Positions 2,713 through 8,266 of a stretch of 8,266 nucleotides of DNA are shown here, piece after piece. Positions within the stretch are counted from its first letter, which is position 1. Every line of letters begins with the position of its first letter. The translations under genes and the position numbers were made by a program. The stretch lies in the IMG/VR virus record IMGVR_UViG_2619619132_000010, one strand, 5' to 3'. The stretch is from a virus. Taxonomy: Duplodnaviria; Heunggongvirae; Uroviricota; Caudoviricetes. The notes under the pieces were generated by a model that had not been told where the DNA came from, did not search any database, and saw nothing but the letters and a program-made list of their open reading frames with translations.

Positions 2713-2732
2713 AAAAAACCGCCATCAGGCGG
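2713..2732 (-). terminator. Intrinsic terminator candidate (hairpin CCGCC-TGAT-GGCGG followed by TTTTTT on minus strand), possibly tL3-like
   Basis: On the minus strand a 5-bp GC stem with 4-nt loop is followed by a T6 run. The stop codon of the upstream 55-aa ORF lies in the loop. Sits between that ORF and the pI/xis region. Confidence 0.5.
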
Positions 2733-2892
2733 CTTGGTGTTCTTTCAGTTCTTCAATTCGAATATTGGTTACGTCTGCATGTGCTATCTGCGCCCACAGC
2801 ATCCAGTGGTTATAGCAGTCGCTGATGTTCTCGGCTTCGATAACTCTGTTGAATGGTTCTCCATTCCATTCACCTGTAACTCGGAAGTGCAT
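2725..2892 (-). CDS. Hypothetical 55-aa protein (matches position and size of the small ORF just left of xis in lambda)
   Basis: ATG at 2892 preceded by GGAG; translation MHFRVTGEWNGEPFNRVIEAENISDCYNHWMLWAQIAHADVTNIRIEELKEHQAA; TGA at 2727-2725. Not in the six-frame track (under 60 aa). Spacing to the xis start is 40 nt. Confidence 0.6.
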   Translation of the reverse strand: MHFRVTGEWNGEPFNRVIEAENISDCYNHWMLWAQIAHADVTNIRIEELKEHQAA

Positions 2893-2930: not shown

Positions 2931-2999
2931 CAGATAAAAGAAATCCCCGCGAGTGCGAGGATTGTTATTCACCTTTGACGGCAAGTTGCAGGTTAGCCA

Positions 3000-3260
3000 T
3001 TACCGCACCTCCAGTCTCCATACCGCCTGACCAATCCGGCTGGCATAGGTATCTTTGGATACTGCTCCGTCTTTAGCCAGCTCCATAAGAATTTTGCGCA
3101 AATCTGCCGAACGCCATTCCTCATCAGGAAATTCCTTCTCCATTGCCAACCGCAGATTCCAGGTTGCTATCGTGAATGGATATTCCCCGCCGAGAGCTTT
3201 CTCTTGCAGGGCAGAACGGGAACGCATCACCTGCAAAACCTTCTCTTTTACATCCATCAT
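3000..3260 (-). CDS. Hypothetical 86-aa early accessory protein (Ea8.5 position)
   Basis: ORF MMDVKEKVLQVMRSRSALQEKALGGEYPFTIATWNLRL... with a strong SD AGGAGG 4 nt upstream of the ATG. The start overlaps the stop of the upstream 304-aa gene (ATGA). Confidence 0.6.
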   Translation of the reverse strand: MMDVKEKVLQVMRSRSALQEKALGGEYPFTIATWNLRLAMEKEFPDEEWRSADLRKILMELAKDGAVSKDTYASRIGQAVWRLEVR

Positions 3261-4171
3261 TTTGCCTCCTGCGGCGGTTCCGGTAGCGGCATCCAGTGAG
3301 TTACGTCATCCAAGATATTTCCTGATAAATATGTGAAAGCTCTATATTTTTTGTAATAAATTGGACTCATTACCCAGTTCCAATATGCTGCCACTATTTG
3401 ACCTTGACTAAATGCCAGTAACATTTTGGTGTCTTCCGGCATTCGCTCACTACAGCTTATCCAACCATCCGGAGTTACCGGAACTTGTGGAATGGCTGTC
3501 TGCTCTCGAACGTCATTAGGCGCTATAGGTTCTGCTGCCAACTGACTGGCATATTTGTTAATGGTAACGATAAGCTCTTGCTCAGCCTCATCCAGACAAT
3601 CACCGATACCTCGCCTGTCACCGTCAAAATCATCGAAATCGGCACGAATCCTGGCAACCTTCAGGATTGCGGACAACACCTCACTAGGAATTGCCGGATA
3701 GTTGGTTGACGTTTCCGCGATTTCCCGAAAATTATTGGTTGACGAATTCTTGTTTTCCCGAAAGTTTCCGGACTGAAGCATGGCGGCGCGGCAGGCGTTC
3801 CATATTTCGGCAGCAATATCGCGCTCGCTATCGGTTAATTTGTACGTTGAAACATAGCCAGAGAGCATTTCTACGTTTTCCGGAGTTGCTTCTTCAGGCA
3901 CTACCGGTGCTGGAGGGGCGGCGTAAATGCCCTCTATCACTAAATGTTTGCGCTCAAAATCATCTGGCTCTCGATGATATACGTAACTCCAATCACCAAG
4001 GTTATCATTGCGCCTGCAACGGAAACCTATCGGCTCTGCTTCCAGCGATGCCAGAGCAATTCGTGCCAGTTCTTCCGCTTCTTCTGCTGGCAGTACAACG
4101 TTGCTACCAGGTCCGTATGTTTCGCGCCACTGCCTGATTGTCAGCAGTCGCTCTTTGGTAATAGTGGTCAT
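3257..4171 (-). CDS. Phage accessory protein, 304 aa, with DUF551-like C-terminal domain and an internal 11-aa tandem repeat
   Basis: ATG at 4171 with AAGGA 7 nt upstream. The C-terminal region DGWISCSERMPEDT...WMPLPEPP resembles the DUF551 domain common in lambdoid Ea-region proteins. Internal repeat NFRENKNSSTN / NFREIAETSTN. Confidence 0.72.
   Translation of the reverse strand: MTTITKERLLTIRQWRETYGPGSNVVLPAEEAEELARIALASLEAEPIGFRCRRNDNLGDWSYVYHREPDDFERKHLVIEGIYAAPPAPVVPEEATPENVEMLSGYVSTYKLTDSERDIAAEIWNACRAAMLQSGNFRENKNSSTNNFREIAETSTNYPAIPSEVLSAILKVARIRADFDDFDGDRRGIGDCLDEAEQELIVTINKYASQLAAEPIAPNDVREQTAIPQVPVTPDGWISCSERMPEDTKMLLAFSQGQIVAAYWNWVMSPIYYKKYRAFTYLSGNILDDVTHWMPLPEPPQEAK
3702..3767. 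repeat. Imperfect 33-bp tandem duplication (2 units, about 25/33 identical) inside the 304-aa CDS
   Basis: TTGGTTGACG occurs at 3702-3711 and again at 3735-3744, and TTTCCCGAAA at 3721-3730 and 3754-3763, i.e. the same 33-bp spacing. In frame (11 codons per unit). Confidence 0.6.
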
Positions 4172-4181
4172 GTGTTAGTCC

Positions 4182-4445
4182 TTATCCTGCTGTACTTTCA
4201 ACTGATGAGGGGAATAAAATCTTTTCATCAAATCCGGCATTCATATCATGAACAGCAACACACCAATCCATTGACGAACGATTATCAAGAGCCTCCATGA
4301 TTTCATCCATGCGGCGCAGGTCATACAGGTAAATGCTTTTATCGCCAATGGTGTAAAAACCAATTTTTTTCGGTGATGGGCAGCGATCAAGAACGTCCTG
4401 TAATTCGTTCAACCATGCCCGTTCTTTTTTTGTTAAAGTTGCCAT
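4182..4445 (-). CDS. Hypothetical 87-aa protein
   Basis: ATG at 4445 (MATLTKKERAWLNELQDVLDRCP...) preceded by AGGAGAG. The six-frame track extends this ORF upstream to 4487, but the SD-supported ATG is at 4445, 1 nt after the Ea22-like stop. Confidence 0.6.
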   Translation of the reverse strand: MATLTKKERAWLNELQDVLDRCPSPKKIGFYTIGDKSIYLYDLRRMDEIMEALDNRSSMDWCVAVHDMNAGFDEKILFPSSVESTAG

Positions 4446-4446
4446 C

Positions 4447-4929
4447 TCACTCTCCTTTGATGCGAATGCCAGCGGCGCGGGAATCATTCCATCGCTTTAC
4501 TTCTTCACGAATTACGTCAATGCATTCTTTCGAATCCATTAGGTAATCTTCATCAAAAAGACGTTCCTGTTCGTTTTCTATCGCAACAATGATTGCTTCA
4601 ACTAACTTTTGTGCCTGAGAATCACTTTCTAACTCTGCTATGCGCTTACTTCCATCCGAGATAACGCCCTCGTAATACTCACGCTGCTCGTTGAGTTTTG
4701 ATTTTGTCTCCTCAAGCTCAACTCTCAGCTTCCCAACAGTAAGCGCAATATCCTCGTTCTCTTGGTCGCGGCGTTTGATGTATTGCTGGTTTCTTTCCCG
4801 TTCATCCAGCAGTGCCAGCACAACCTGAGGTGTGACTTTCATACGAAATGCCAGCAATTTTTGAGGCGTTGCTACTGTTTCAATTGCTACTGCTGCCTCA
4901 CGCAGTACCTGATAGTCAATCTTGCTCAC
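4447..4929 (-). CDS. Ea22-like early accessory protein (about 160 aa from the GTG start)
   Basis: The segment [37 protein letters not shown]...[14 protein letters not shown]...AGIRIKGE is recalled as lambda Ea22-like. Most likely start is GTG at 4929 with AGGAGG 6 nt upstream (MSKIDYQ...). The track's alternative start is 4950 (also GTG). Confidence 0.68.
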
Positions 4930-5093
4930 TGGTTGCCTCCTTTGCGCCACATCGCATTCAGATATTTGTTTTTATTCACTGAAGGAAAAGAATTTCTCTT
5001 AAGCAATTCCTCTCTCGATGGCATTGGCTTTACGCGTTGGCGAATAATCATTTCTGCCGGAAGAATGCCGGGATTGTATGCAAGACCTCTCAT
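4926..5093 (-). CDS. Hypothetical 55-aa protein
   Basis: ATG at 5093 overlaps the stop of the upstream 96-aa gene (ATGA), and its own TGA overlaps the GTG start of the Ea22-like gene (GTGA). Translation [55 protein letters not shown]. Not in the track. Confidence 0.45.
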
Positions 5094-5380
5094 GATTTAC
5101 TCTCCACGAACTGGTCAATAGCCATGCTAAGTGACACACCTAAAGTCTCGATATGCTGCTGAATATCCTGTAGCGTCTGCGCCTGAGATAACAGGATTTC
5201 ACGGTTGCATAACTCTTTAACTAGATGCTCAAACTTGCTGTAATAACCGATACGGCTTAGTGTTTCTTTCCCTGCATTATCACCTTCTTTGATAATTCCT
5301 CTTTCACTAAGAATCAGGTCGTGTTTGGTTACGGTAATAACGTATTTGCCGAGGTCGATGTTTAGCTTCATTGTTTTCAT
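5090..5380 (-). CDS. Hypothetical 96-aa protein (possible Abc-like accessory protein by position)
   Basis: ATG at 5380 ([17 protein letters not shown]...) with GAGGA 7 nt upstream. The track extends the ORF upstream to 5533, but that extension overlaps the preceding gene and lacks an SD. Confidence 0.6.
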
Positions 5381-5390
5381 TGTTAATTCC

Positions 5391-5687
5391 TCAGTCATTA
5401 CTGATAGCGCCATAACGAGAGCGATAATTACGCAGGCGCGGGTCGATATATTCAGGGAAGTGGGTATATGTGGCTTTGCGGAATGGTCGGATTGATGTCT
5501 GGTAAATTCGCTCGCGTTCTTCTTTCTCTGCAAGCCATATACAGTGGCGAAATTCCTTTTCCTCTTTCGTTTCCTGCGGTAGCGACATTATCCGATCGTA
5601 GTTTTTTCTGAATTTATCCAGCACCTCCGATACGGAATTGCCGGAACAGCGGCGCGCGTCATCCGCACCATACAGAGGCGCTGGCAT
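5391..5687 (-). CDS. Hypothetical 98-aa protein (possible Abc-like accessory protein by position)
   Basis: ATG at 5687 with AAGGA 7 nt upstream; translation MPAPLYGADDARRCSGNSVSEVLDKFRKNYDRIMSLPQETKEEKEF.... Lies 23 nt downstream of the ssb-like stop. Confidence 0.6.
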   Translation of the reverse strand: MPAPLYGADDARRCSGNSVSEVLDKFRKNYDRIMSLPQETKEEKEFRHCIWLAEKEERERIYQTSIRPFRKATYTHFPEYIDPRLRNYRSRYGAISND

Positions 5688-5710
5688 AATGGAATCCTTA
5701 TTTTGCTAAT

Positions 5711-6094
5711 CTAGAAGGGAATTGAATCGTCGTATTCAGGATGATTTTGATGATTGCTACTTTGTTGCTGTTGGCTGTTTCCTGAAGTTGCAAATCCAAT
5801 CTTTGCATTCAGTAATTCAAGAGTGATTGATTGACCATTTTGCCCCTGATAAACATCAACCATGATGTTTTCTCCGGTAATTTCTACAATGCCACCTTCA
5901 ACAAGAACACTACGGTAGTAATCCGCTTGCGCTCCCGGCTTGGCAAATACAACGGCGCTGTAGTTTGTCCATTCTTTCTTTTTTGTCTGGCGATCGTAAT
6001 ACTGAACGCCAGCACGGATGTTGAATCCGATATTTTCCCCGGCCTGAAACTCTCTTGCGGGCTTGTTTAGTCTTACAGTAATCGAATGTGCCAT
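5711..6094 (-). CDS. ssb: Short phage single-stranded DNA-binding protein (SSB-like, 127 aa)
   Basis: C-terminal acidic tail ...EYDDSIPF matches the SSB-family DDDIPF-type tail, preceded by a Q/S/N-rich linker and an N-terminal domain of OB-fold size. Start ATG overlaps the erf stop (TAATG). Confidence 0.72.
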   Translation of the reverse strand: MAHSITVRLNKPAREFQAGENIGFNIRAGVQYYDRQTKKKEWTNYSAVVFAKPGAQADYYRSVLVEGGIVEITGENIMVDVYQGQNGQSITLELLNAKIGFATSGNSQQQQSSNHQNHPEYDDSIPF

Positions 6095-6699
6095 TAAGCA
6101 GCAGCTCCTTCTAATTCGTCTCGTCTGATGTTGTAAACGTCCTGCGCTTTGTGCTGCTCAGGTGTGCCTTCGAGCATCTTCCACGCTTTGGCGAACGCCT
6201 GTTTAAGCTCTTCTACGGTGTTTTTCTGCATTGCTGCGTCAGTGAATGCTTTTAGAACCTGTTCAGGTGTAGGTGATGGTTTTGATTGCTTTGCTGCTGC
6301 GTTCTGCTGATGTTTATGCTCGTCTGTATCTGCATCTTTCGCATCATCAATGCCGAACAAACCATTGAGGCAATACTTGCGTGCATAAGAGCTTGTAGCT
6401 CCCGTAACTTGTGCAGAATCCATTCCTTTCTTGCTTTCTTCCTCTCGTGCAAGAGCGGTTGCCGTATGGCTGTTTTCGCCATCGGTAATAGTTGCCGTGG
6501 CTTTCACGTAATACCGATCACCAATCAACACAACTTCATCGCTGATTGATAAAAACAGACCATTCAGTAACGGCTTAACGCCTTCAAGAATATCTTCGCA
6601 GCTTCTGTATTTATATTTACCGAATGAGTTGTACTGATTCTTTGGCGCGTTCAGATTCTCCTGAATAGCTGCCAGTCTTGCGTAAAATTCTTTGCTCAT
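6094..6699 (-). CDS. erf: Erf-family single-strand annealing recombinase (P22 Erf-like, 201 aa)
   Basis: MSKEFYARLAAIQENLNAPKNQYNSFGKYKYRSCEDILEGVKPLLNGLFLSISDEVVLIGDRYYVKATATITDGENSH... recognised as close to phage P22 Erf. Start taken as ATG at 6699; the track's 6729 start is a TTG extension. Confidence 0.9.
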   Translation of the reverse strand: MSKEFYARLAAIQENLNAPKNQYNSFGKYKYRSCEDILEGVKPLLNGLFLSISDEVVLIGDRYYVKATATITDGENSHTATALAREEESKKGMDSAQVTGATSSYARKYCLNGLFGIDDAKDADTDEHKHQQNAAAKQSKPSPTPEQVLKAFTDAAMQKNTVEELKQAFAKAWKMLEGTPEQHKAQDVYNIRRDELEGAAA

Positions 6700-6709
6700 A
6701 TGATTGTTC

Positions 6710-6880
6710 TCAGAATGGACACGGCCCAAGGAAATAACGCTGATTTAATACTTCGACTCGGGACAAATTAAGGCATACCCGCATTCCTTCACGATCTCCA
6801 TTCTGGCGATACATTAACGCCTGCTGCGTGTACATGCGTCTCTGTAACTTGCTCTCCTTCACTGTGGTTGCAAGTGACAT
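6710..6880 (-). CDS. Hypothetical 56-aa ORF just upstream of erf (arf-position candidate); overlaps the next ORF in another frame
   Basis: ATG at 6880 preceded by GGAG with 6-nt spacing; translation MSLATTVKESKLQRRMYTQQALMYRQNGDREGMRVCLNLSRVEVLNQRYFLGPCPF; TGA at 6712-6710, 10 nt before the erf ATG. Not in the track. Confidence 0.4.
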   Translation of the reverse strand: MSLATTVKESKLQRRMYTQQALMYRQNGDREGMRVCLNLSRVEVLNQRYFLGPCPF

Positions 6881-6959
6881 GAATATCTCCTTCGTTACCG
6901 ATTAATTCTTTCATCTGACGAATGAATTCTTCGTCTGACCAGTTATCTGTAAAACTCAT
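6789..6959 (-). CDS. Hypothetical 56-aa acidic protein, translationally coupled to the kil-like gene
   Basis: ATG at 6959 overlaps the kil-like stop (ATGA); translation MSFTDNWSDEEFIRQMKELIGNEGDIHVTCNHSEGEQVTETHVHAAGVNVSPEWRS. The track shows it with a GTG-extended start at 6974. Confidence 0.45.
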   Translation of the reverse strand: MSFTDNWSDEEFIRQMKELIGNEGDIHVTCNHSEGEQVTETHVHAAGVNVSPEWRS

Positions 6960-7108
6960 TTCCTGCGATACCACGGAAGGTTGATAGCTGATTTCATCGC
7001 TTTATTTGCTTCAAGCCACATTTTTGAATCACCAATAAATCTGGCTATTACTGCTTTGTTCTGTGCAGCACGAAGCATCTGGTGATTGATGGCTATTTCA
7101 TTGCGCAT
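6956..7108 (-). CDS. kil: Kil-like small protein (50 aa), candidate host cell-division (FtsZ) inhibitor
   Basis: Translation MRNEIAINHQMLRAAQNKAVIARFIGDSKMWLEANKAMKSAINLPWYRRK. The ARFIGDSKMW segment resembles recalled lambda Kil. GAGG 7 nt upstream of the ATG; the start lies inside the 3' end of the cIII-like gene, as for lambda cIII/kil. Confidence 0.55.
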   Translation of the reverse strand: MRNEIAINHQMLRAAQNKAVIARFIGDSKMWLEANKAMKSAINLPWYRRK

Positions 7109-7224
7109 AATAAGACCTCAACTCTTTTCCATCCGTCACGTAATTTACGGGTGATTCGTTCAAGTAAAGATTCATTTAATTGGAAGGCACCCATGCGAGC
7201 GCCTCCCGCGATTGCGTAAATCAT
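7093..7224 (-). CDS. cIII: CIII-like protein (43 aa), candidate FtsH-inhibiting regulator
   Basis: Translation MIYAIAGGARMGAFQLNESLLERITRKLRDGWKRVEVLLCAMK. The core ESLLERITRKLRDGWKR matches the recalled lambda CIII central helix. AAGGA 7 nt upstream of the ATG. Not in the track. Confidence 0.7.
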   Translation of the reverse strand: MIYAIAGGARMGAFQLNESLLERITRKLRDGWKRVEVLLCAMK

Positions 7225-7248: not shown

Positions 7249-8142
7249 TTAGTAGGTTATTTTTGTTGCGAATACTTCGCCTTTTACGATGGCTGTTATG
7301 ATATTTTTAGCAACATCTTCTGATGCACCAACCTTGATAAGGTCAGCAAGTATTTTGTTATTTACTTCTTTCCGGTGAGCTTTATCCTTTGCTCTACGCT
7401 CTTCTTCGTCCTTGATTCTTTTTTCTTCTGCTATTCTGGCTTGCTCTTTTGCTTCAGCTTCGCGCCGGATTCGTTCAGCCTCCTCCTGTGCTTTTCGGCG
7501 TTCTGCTTCAATTGCCGCCTGCTTTTCTCTTTCAGCTCGTTCTGCTGCCTCTTTTGCTTCGCGCTGTGCTCGTTGCTCGGCTTCAATGCGTTCACGCTCT
7601 GCACGTTCCGCTGCGGCCTTAGCTTCTGCTTCTCGCCTTGCTGCTGCTTCAATTTCGGCTTTTGCCTTTGCTTCGGCTTCTGCTCTGGCTTTCTCTTCAG
7701 CTTCTCTTTTTAAGCGTTCTTCATGCTCTCGCTTTTCCTGCTCCGCTTTGAGTCTTGCCTCTTCTCTTTTGCGGTCAAATTCGCGATCCATCAAAATCGC
7801 TATTTCATGGTCAGACTCAATTTGCTTTGCGAGAGCTTCAGCTGCTGCCTTAGCTTCTTCTTCGGCTTTAATCCGTGCCTGTTCCTCCTCATAATCAGTA
7901 AGAGGCTGGCGTGCCTTGGCTTTCAGTTCATCAAGGCGATCGCGCACTGTCTTGCGGTTGGCATCAATTAGCTTTGGAATTTCCTTCAGTTCAGCAACAA
8001 GGTCTTTGCCAAGACCATCGAGATATGTTTTCGTCTGCGCAACTTTATACGCCAGAGAAGCGATCTGAACCGCCCCGGGTTTCCTGGAGAGTGTTTTATC
8101 TGTGAACTCAGGCTGCCAGATCATCGTTTCCGATGGAAGCAT
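7249..8142 (-). CDS. Large charged low-complexity protein (E/A/K/R-rich predicted long helix), function unknown; 5' end uncertain
   Basis: Long minus-strand ORF with stop at 7251-7249. First in-frame ATGs are at 8142 and 8124, neither with a convincing SD. The central 500 nt or so encodes EAEAKAKAE / ERAERER-type repeats. Its 5' region overlaps the transposase C-terminus in another frame. Confidence 0.55.
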   Translation of the reverse strand: MLPSETMIWQPEFTDKTLSRKPGAVQIASLAYKVAQTKTYLDGLGKDLVAELKEIPKLIDANRKTVRDRLDELKAKARQPLTDYEEEQARIKAEEEAKAAAEALAKQIESDHEIAILMDREFDRKREEARLKAEQEKREHEERLKREAEEKARAEAEAKAKAEIEAAARREAEAKAAAERAERERIEAEQRAQREAKEAAERAEREKQAAIEAERRKAQEEAERIRREAEAKEQARIAEEKRIKDEEERRAKDKAHRKEVNNKILADLIKVGASEDVAKNIITAIVKGEVFATKITY

Positions 8143-8266
8143 AATAAGCTTTTTCTGCTTCTGCCGGAGGAGTATGGCCCAGCCTTTCCAGCAATCGTCG
8201 ATTGTTATACCAGTCCACCCACGTGAGTGTGGCCAGTTCCACTTCTGCACGGTTTTTCCAGCTCTT
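8108..8266 (-). mobile_element. C-terminal end of a DDE (rve-type) transposase, IS3-family-like; partial, runs off the window
   Basis: Minus-strand frame reads ...KSWKNRAEVELATLTWVDWYNNRRLLERLGHTPPAEAEKAYYASIGNDDLAA then TGA at 8110-8108. The W..WYN.RR...LG..P.E motif is typical of the C-terminal part of integrase-core transposases. Confidence 0.55.

Follow-up and report, generated by a model that had tools for sequence, protein, structure and literature searches.

Do start and stop codons that share bases along a phage operon tie the translation of each gene to that of its neighbour, and can such overlaps tell us which of the short open reading frames (ORFs) between them are genes? Both questions are raised by a locus in the Caudoviricetes record IMGVR_UViG_2619619132_000010 of IMG/VR, from which we analysed a stretch of 8,266 nucleotides (nt), called the window below. 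In an initial annotation, the genes read on the minus strand from position 7108 to position 3000 had been described as a chain of ATGA, GTGA and TAATG junctions running from kil to a gene of 86 amino acids (aa); this chain was taken to imply translational coupling across the operon, and to support as real genes several ORFs that fall below a length cut-off. The five overlaps of the chain are real, ordinary and already known, the same junctions being annotated in phages HK022 and HK97. Translational coupling of these genes is plausible by analogy with gene pairs studied elsewhere, and the short ORFs stand as genes, with one weak case, on evidence other than the overlaps themselves.

Both the sequence and a scripted junction table place all five junctions on the minus strand at the positions reported for them (Table 1). 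Each joins two co-directional genes that share stop and start bases, and all five fall into the class with a spacing of -4 or -1 (in nt between stop and start, negative where genes overlap). The junction of the 304-aa and 86-aa genes reads ATGATG, and a start at the second ATG would make it a TGATG overlap at -1. Other tight junctions had been left out of the list: the +1 spacing between the Ea22-like and 87-aa genes, the overlaps of cIII with kil (-16) and of xis with int (-23), three gaps of 10 nt, and a sixth overlap, the TAATG in which the 86-aa gene ends. The last of these opens an 11-codon stub, MANLQLAVKGE (2965-3002, minus strand), which is the start of a deleted ASCH-domain gene; this gene is intact in the alignment with one related locus (L001), and here ~240 nt are missing, lost between copies of an 11-bp repeat. 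The deletion is defined relative to the prophage of strain CUVET21-PYO5.

The overlaps were followed through 240 related IMG/VR loci taken from three viral-contig scans, and are kept wherever the same neighbours are present. The kil/ORF A spacing of -4 is found in 132 loci representing 18 distinct contexts, the erf/ssb spacing of -1 in 118 loci (13 contexts), and the -4 spacing between the 96-aa gene (DUF5405) and the 55-aa gene (DUF2737) in 99 loci (17 contexts). At the Ea22-like gene the GTGA is kept at -4 in 48 loci (28 contexts), with ATG for GTG in a few further loci, and the junction of the 304-aa gene (DUF551) with the 86-aa gene is kept at -4 in 76 loci (19 contexts), with rare variants at -1, -13, +1 and +7. 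Outside the chain, the cIII/kil overlap of -16 is kept in 79 loci, and the +1 spacing after the Ea22-like gene in 11 of the 11 loci carrying the 87-aa gene. In 75 loci without the 96-aa gene, the DUF2737 gene follows abc2 by 10 nt and its start still reads ATGAGAGG, and the start of the DUF551 family is seen at -4, +1, +2, +3 or +10. The exact spacing of -4 is therefore not required, because spacings shift to other short values when the neighbours differ. The genes are as a rule tightly packed, and it is at the borders of exchangeable modules that the overlaps fall.

How far such a motif can identify genes was gauged by a count among ORFs of 50 aa or more, in which the stop of one had to overlap the start of another at -4 or -1. 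The coding strand has seven such overlaps, namely the five reported, the alternative at -1 at 3257 and a spurious one inside ybhC; the antisense strand has four comparable overlaps among spurious ORFs, and dinucleotide-preserving shuffles have a mean of 0.59. The motif is thus commoner in real than in shuffled sequence, yet it does not tell genes from the long pseudo-ORFs opposite them, and the bare motif exceeds chance only weakly. The spurious overlaps lie at 793, 2822, 3706 and 6307 on the plus strand and at 459 on the minus strand; the ORFs that they join, each of 50 aa or more, lie opposite genes or within ybhC. None of them, the four antisense or the one inside ybhC, has a Shine-Dalgarno match, and the antisense starts score from -3.8 to +1.2 kcal/mol. 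Real and spurious junctions are told apart by their ribosome-binding sites, by conservation and by membership in families, all of it evidence independent of the motif. The same motif occurs in antisense ORFs and at a deletion stub, so that a start/stop overlap alone gives no ground for promoting an ORF to a gene; taken by itself, the support that the initial annotation drew from it is weak.

The short ORFs themselves fared better, being supported by profile matches, by third-position changes and by Shine-Dalgarno sites, with ORF A as the weak case. Changes were counted by codon position over distinct ungapped homologs; the set used for the kil-erf interval diverges by at most ~10% in DNA. At position 3 we find 20 of 33 changes in kil (p=0.0012; 47 of 47 variants intact), 35 of 53 in the DUF2737 gene (p=1.2e-6; 48 of 50 distinct variants intact), 19 of 24 in the 87-aa gene (p=5.5e-6; 8 of 8 intact), 34 of 55 in the 86-aa gene (p=1.4e-5; 43 of 44 intact) and 19 of 33 in the 55-aa gene at 2725-2892 (p=0.0036; 27 of 28 intact). 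By this excess, together with their profiles and ribosome-binding sites, these five are genes. The counts for erf and the DUF5405 gene are 81 of 106 and 43 of 69. The DUF2737 protein scores 108.9 bits against a cut-off of 25, its residues 1-51 aligning with positions 1-51 of the 53-position profile. The matches to Lambda_Kil, ERF, Anti-RecBCD_p2, DUF5405, DUF2737, Ead_Ea22 and DUF551 all exceed the Pfam cut-offs. PHROG families cover every short ORF; NCBIfam returned no match among eight small proteins. At the level of junctions, coding support extends to kil, erf, and the SSB-like, DUF5405, DUF2737, Ea22-like, DUF551 and 86-aa genes as partners. The SSB-like protein ends in DDSIPF, a tip that we take to resemble the DDDIPF tip of Escherichia coli SSB. 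It has no match in Pfam or NCBIfam and is 94% identical to HK97 gp40, a protein classed as SSB-1b, on its predicted fold only, in a 2025 survey that covers lambdoid recombination modules (PMC12315714).

Ribosome-binding sites divide the downstream starts of the chain into two groups. Four of the five (ssb, DUF2737, Ea22-like and 86-aa) have Shine-Dalgarno sites of -6.8 to -11.6 kcal/mol: -6.8 for the DUF2737 gene, -10.3 for the 86-aa gene, and -11.6 for the Ea22-like gene, where AAGGAGG lies 6 nt upstream of GTG 4929. The site of the 87-aa gene scores -9.1 kcal/mol. ORF A has a weak site (-2.8 kcal/mol) that falls in the range of the spurious antisense starts, and the site of erf is also weak (-2.7 kcal/mol). 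Local RNA folds around the starts gave no clear evidence of sequestered ribosome-binding sites. The alternative Ea22-like start at GTG 4950 has no ribosome-binding site. In the form starting at GTG 4929 the Ead_Ea22 profile aligns from residue 2 onward, and this is where the start of the gene belongs. An annotation of the locus should also keep kil, the 55-aa DUF2737 gene, the 86-aa and 87-aa genes and ORF B, although they are below the length cut-off.

Table 1. Features of the window, in order of position; spacings in nt
Feature	Position	Strand	Length	Match or remark
ybhC	1-1284	minus		
Lambda-type attachment core GCTTTTTTATACTAA	1331-1345			beside ybhC
int	1419-2489	minus		start overlaps end of xis by 23 nt
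xis	2467-2685	minus		
55-aa gene nearest xis	2725-2892	minus	55 aa	
Two tandem terminator-like hairpins	2912-2963	minus		after 86-aa gene; close the block
TAATG, stop of 86-aa gene	2998-3002	minus		opens 11-codon stub; not in the initial annotation
86-aa gene	3000-3260	minus	86 aa	phrog_2814, E=8.3e-51, full length
ATGA, 304-aa/86-aa genes	3257-3260	minus		spacing -4
304-aa gene	3257-4171	minus	304 aa	C-terminal DUF551 (Pfam), E=7.3e-22
87-aa gene	4182-4445	minus	87 aa	phrog_1714, E=9.6e-51
TGAGATG, Ea22-like/87-aa genes	4443-4449	minus		spacing +1; not in the initial annotation
Ea22-like gene	4447-4929	minus	160 aa	from GTG 4929; Pfam Ead_Ea22, E=1.5e-27
GTGA, 55-aa/Ea22-like genes	4926-4929	minus		spacing -4
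DUF2737 gene	4926-5093	minus	55 aa	Pfam DUF2737, E=1.1e-31
ATGA, 96-aa/55-aa genes	5090-5093	minus		spacing -4
DUF5405 gene	5090-5380	minus	96 aa	Pfam DUF5405, E=1.5e-5 (above cut-off); phrog_154
abc2, anti-RecBCD	5391-5687	minus	98 aa	Pfam Anti-RecBCD_p2, E=4.1e-61
SSB-like gene (ssb), HK97 gp40 type	5711-6094	minus	127 aa	phrog_44 (SSB), E=2.1e-27
TAATG, erf stop/ssb start	6092-6096	minus		shared base 6094; spacing -1
erf, single-strand annealing protein	6094-6699	minus	201 aa	Pfam ERF, E=2.1e-44
ORF B	6710-6880	minus	56 aa	phrog_1723; ends 10 nt before erf
ORF A	6789-6959	minus	56 aa (52 aa in most relatives)	phrog_2123, E=4e-40
ATGA, kil stop/ORF A start	6956-6959	minus		spacing -4
kil	6956-7108	minus	50 aa	Pfam Lambda_Kil, E=1.7e-20, above cut-off
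cIII	7093-7224	minus	43 aa	phrog_550, E=1.6e-20; PGAP names homolog CIII
TolA-like coiled-coil gene	7249 onward	minus		5' end lost
End of IS3-family element	8066-8266	minus		matches transposase 3' end and element terminus

ORF A is the least secure member of the chain, and its coding status is uncertain. The 3' part of ORF A overlaps ORF B, which lies outside the gene list of the initial annotation, by 92 nt in a different frame. It is quite possible, if somewhat short of probable, that the overlap of kil with ORF A arose by chance or is vestigial, that ORF A encodes no functional protein and that ORF B is the real gene between kil and erf. Besides the weak ribosome-binding site of ORF A, several observations point this way. 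ORF A as a whole shows no excess of changes at position 3 (p=0.48). Its 3' half is free of coding constraint: of the 29 changes in the overlap with ORF B, frame A has only 3 that are synonymous and 3 that create stops, whereas 16 are synonymous in frame B. Its stop varies in position (52 or 56 aa), with a premature stop in a single locus, and in 5 loci the start has been replaced. Annotation by PGAP often omits it. The unshared part of ORF A (6881-6959, its first 26 codons) tells otherwise: frame A is the only open frame there, and position 3 accounts for 15 of 27 changes (p=0.014; 7 of 8 in a smaller set). The conservation of the ATG and of the ATGA overlap across the 132 loci and 18 contexts likewise argues for a functional ORF A, as do its annotation by the curators of HK022 and HK97 and the SDEEFI motif that it has in common with the Arf protein of phage P22 at the same N-terminal position.

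Two further leads on ORF A were followed and set aside. Phage Louie was considered as independent evidence of coding, and was rejected; its DNA is identical over kil and 16 codons and then diverges abruptly. Because the identity ends so abruptly, we read the match as a recombination joint and not as conservation of a protein; the first 16 codons of ORF A are linked to kil there, with no sign of selection on the protein, which again fits a non-functional ORF A. Membership of ORF A in the Arf family was rejected as well, ORF A matching phrog_2123 and P22 Arf matching phrog_2445; in a pairwise comparison SDEEFI is all that they have in common (E=0.01). P22 Arf is an accessory recombination protein, as shown genetically (PMC12315714). 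Existing annotation of this interval is inconsistent: HK022 has both ORFs (42.1 is ORF A and HK022_42 is ORF B), HF4s has ORF A but not ORF B, and PGAP varies between the two from genome to genome. In one locus (L092) a gene whose product, judged from the translation by eye, appears to end like a TnpB of IS200/IS605 type takes the place of kil and the start of ORF A; ORF B and erf are intact in it.

ORF B gives a clearer picture. It has a strong ribosome-binding site, GAAGGAG (-8.8 kcal/mol), which lies inside ORF A, and 32 of its 59 changes fall at position 3 (p=0.00076). ORF B is intact at 56 aa in all but two of 112 erf loci, and has 62 aa in one through an internal duplication; the two exceptions are HK97, in which ORF A and ORF B are fused, and a hybrid (L022). 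In this hybrid the last 43 residues of ORF B continue, in the same frame, another N-terminal region, which we take to be lambda Ea10-like, and the recombination joint lies inside the gene. A diverged homolog of 66 aa (L097:697-1586; 34% identical, same PHROG, E=2.5e-33) occurs without ORF A; it follows a lambda-type kil and precedes a gene for a 226-aa P-loop ATPase that stands in the place of erf. Because this homolog precedes a P-loop ATPase gene and not erf, ORF B-type proteins appear to travel with different types of recombinase.

Would the tight junctions couple translation? Spacings of -4 and -1 are the commonest in prokaryotes, and coupling in E. coli is most efficient between -4 and +3, declining by about +30 to +40 (PMC12548453). 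These two spacings are also the classes in which reporter tests in E. coli revealed strict coupling (PMC6728339, PMC12548453). Strict coupling was found in four of five natural overlapping pairs of E. coli and in 13 of 14 pairs overall, including pairs with Shine-Dalgarno motifs, and the contribution of the motif differs between the pairs tested (PMC6728339). The coupled pairs of E. coli and Haloferax (Huber et al. 2019, PMC6728339; Brown and Wade 2025, PMC12548453) are, like those of the window, co-directional, joined by ATGA or GTGA or by TAATG, and mostly provided with a Shine-Dalgarno motif inside the upstream gene; coupling of the published pairs was demonstrated by experiment, whereas ours are known from sequence. 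By analogy, the most likely mechanism is one in which ribosomes that finish an upstream gene would stay on the mRNA, or open it, and then initiate at the adjacent start, helped by the Shine-Dalgarno sites that the upstream genes carry in their 3' ends; in this way the small genes would have their expression tied to that of their neighbours. We suggest that coupling would matter most where the downstream site is weak, that is from kil to ORF A (-4) and from ORF B to erf (+10), and erf may be the gene most dependent on upstream translation. At the strong sites of ssb, DUF2737, Ea22-like and the 86-aa gene, independent initiation could suffice.

Several points weigh against coupling as the meaning of the chain. 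The strong sites at four junctions permit independent initiation, which is equally possible at these four starts because each has a good Shine-Dalgarno site of its own. The same downstream genes tolerate spacings of -14 to +16 when their neighbours differ. The motif is unspecific, recurring at four antisense junctions, once in ybhC and once at a dead stub. The argument for coupling here would be carried over entirely from published work on other gene pairs. Finally, an IS3-family insertion element cuts this copy of the operon off from its upstream region and leaves the native promoter, which may have been lost, outside the window, and operon expression may differ from that of an intact phage. 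Because the element removes the native upstream region from the window, ribosome profiling of an induced lysogen, the check proposed in the initial annotation, may fail as a test if made with this copy.

An alternative, favoured by the strong sites at four starts and by the spacings of -14 to +16 with other partners but in our view rather unlikely, is that the overlaps are a by-product of compaction and of recombination joints, with independent initiation and no regulatory consequence. On either reading, overlaps arise easily because a start codon already gives three of the four bases of NTGA, and the abundance of -4 probably reflects how easily it evolves (PMC12548453). They persist, too, as boundaries of exchangeable modules, as at the DUF2737 gene, which keeps its ATGA start with either the 96-aa gene or abc2 upstream, even where no gene ends on it. 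This alternative has to contend with the coupling of most natural E. coli overlapping pairs, those bearing Shine-Dalgarno motifs included (PMC6728339), with nearly every variant among the loci remaining inside the spacing window in which coupling is efficient, and with the weak-site genes ORF A and erf lying just -4 and +10 from an upstream stop. We therefore keep translational coupling as a plausible reading for the chain.

For the interval between kil and erf we speculate, tentatively and with some doubt, that ORF A and ORF B together make up a genuine dual-coding pair. Ribosomes reinitiating after kil would translate ORF A, and the overprinted ORF B would feed ribosomes to the Shine-Dalgarno-poor erf; both proteins would be small accessory factors of Erf recombination, and the relay from kil through ORF A and ORF B to erf and ssb would set the ratios of the recombination proteins. 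A very different relation between the two ORFs is suggested by HK97 (L009/L248), in which a 2-nt insertion joins the first 43 residues of ORF A to the last 40 of ORF B in a single 83-aa ORF, annotated HK97p32. That ORF A and ORF B are the halves of one gene, read through a programmed +1 frameshift into an 83-aa protein as in HK97, would agree with this direct fusion and with a constraint that runs first in frame A and then in frame B, but is highly improbable, as the two ORFs are separate in more than 100 of the 112 loci, ORF B has its own strong site and ATG and is under constraint from the first codon on, which lies upstream of the point of fusion in HK97, a reading of the overlap by eye, without a tool, turned up no slippery or prfB-like site, and the diverged ORF B homolog exists without ORF A. 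The overlap of ORF A and ORF B is the one point of modest biological interest in the locus, and may bear on the expression of Erf-type modules.

As to its setting, the window is a lambdoid prophage, integrated beside ybhC at the attachment site of lambda. In the order of transcription, the genes are TolA-like, cIII, kil, ORF A, ORF B, erf, SSB-like, abc2, DUF5405, DUF2737, Ea22-like, 87-aa, DUF551, 86-aa and 55-aa (2725-2892), followed by xis and int. By the scripted junction table, the spacings from the TolA-like to the SSB-like gene are +24, -16, -4, +89 (nested and then +10 when ORF B is counted) and -1, and from there to int they are +23, +10, -4, -4, +1, +10, -4, +107, +39 and -23. The block is very likely a gene-dense early-left operon (cIII-kil-recombination-ea, or "exo-xis") of the HK022/HK97/P22 kind, its small genes standing head to tail at spacings mostly from -4 to +10 nt, with overlaps as the usual form of packing: the cIII, kil, recombination and ea genes read towards xis and int beside the attachment site, in a layout that matches other prophages at ybhC. 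The pL promoter and operators, nutL and the antiterminator are absent from the window.

Consensus scans of the coding strand between 7224 and 3000 gave no terminator-like sites and no convincing promoter-like sites, the promoter hits not rising above those in shuffled sequence. The only coding-strand terminator-like sites from cIII to xis are the tandem hairpins listed in Table 1 and a further hairpin at 2716-2735 (minus strand), after the 55-aa gene. Because internal terminator-like or promoter-like sites were not found and the tandem hairpins follow the 86-aa gene, the block from 7224 to 3000 is consistent with one polycistronic unit.

In megablast searches the window is a mosaic, with segments 95-98% identical to HF4s, mEp213/mEp043, HK022, HK97, CUS-3 and many ybhC prophages; no phage record and no complete E. 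coli genome covered at least 80% of the query. HK022 and HK97 (AF069308, NC_002167) have the same gene order, cIII-kil-(42.1/42)-erf-gp40-abc2-DUF2737-Ea22-like and on to xis-int, and their junctions match those of the window at kil/42.1 (-4), 42 to erf (+10), erf/gp40 (-1), abc2 to 38 (+10) and 38/37 (-4). The window differs from them in its extra 96-aa DUF5405 gene between abc2 and DUF2737, in other ea genes after Ea22 (87-aa, DUF551 and 86-aa), in the deleted ASCH gene and in the IS3-family element upstream. P22 (c3-kil-arf-erf-abc1-abc2-ea) shares the architecture, with a small acidic ORF between kil and erf, and its erf/abc1 junction is a TAATG at -1 like erf/ssb in the window; however, arf overlaps erf by 4 nt, and abc1 takes the place of the SSB-like gene. 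The spacing statistics of the two are the same, with four junctions at -4 and one at -1 among 15 in each; HK022 has three and one of 14, and HF4s three and two of 15.

In phage lambda, the exo-xis region (ea22, orf61, orf60a, orf63, orf73, ea8.5) has the same place between the recombination genes and xis, and likewise consists of many small non-essential ORFs with an Ea22-family gene, although its other gene content differs. Unannotated ORFs of this region are translated, according to passages in papers that cite a ribosome-profiling study (PMC7093339, PMC4195576). Taken with these relatives, the main value of the present locus is for annotation; the understanding of lambdoid phages or of translational coupling is unchanged by it.

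At the upstream end of the window, homology to intact prophages ends at ~8066, and the 3' end of a transposase gene of the IS3-family element lies at 8108-8242; the element has taken the place of some 150 nt at the start of the TolA-like gene. An exact 40-mer spanning the junction had no match in the species-representative genomes. A related prophage (L246) has an IS3-family element just upstream of the TolA-like gene, with no annotated N, repressor or replication genes between the element and ninF. The identical junction is present in a single viral contig of 6.4 kb (L012), which ends in the element.

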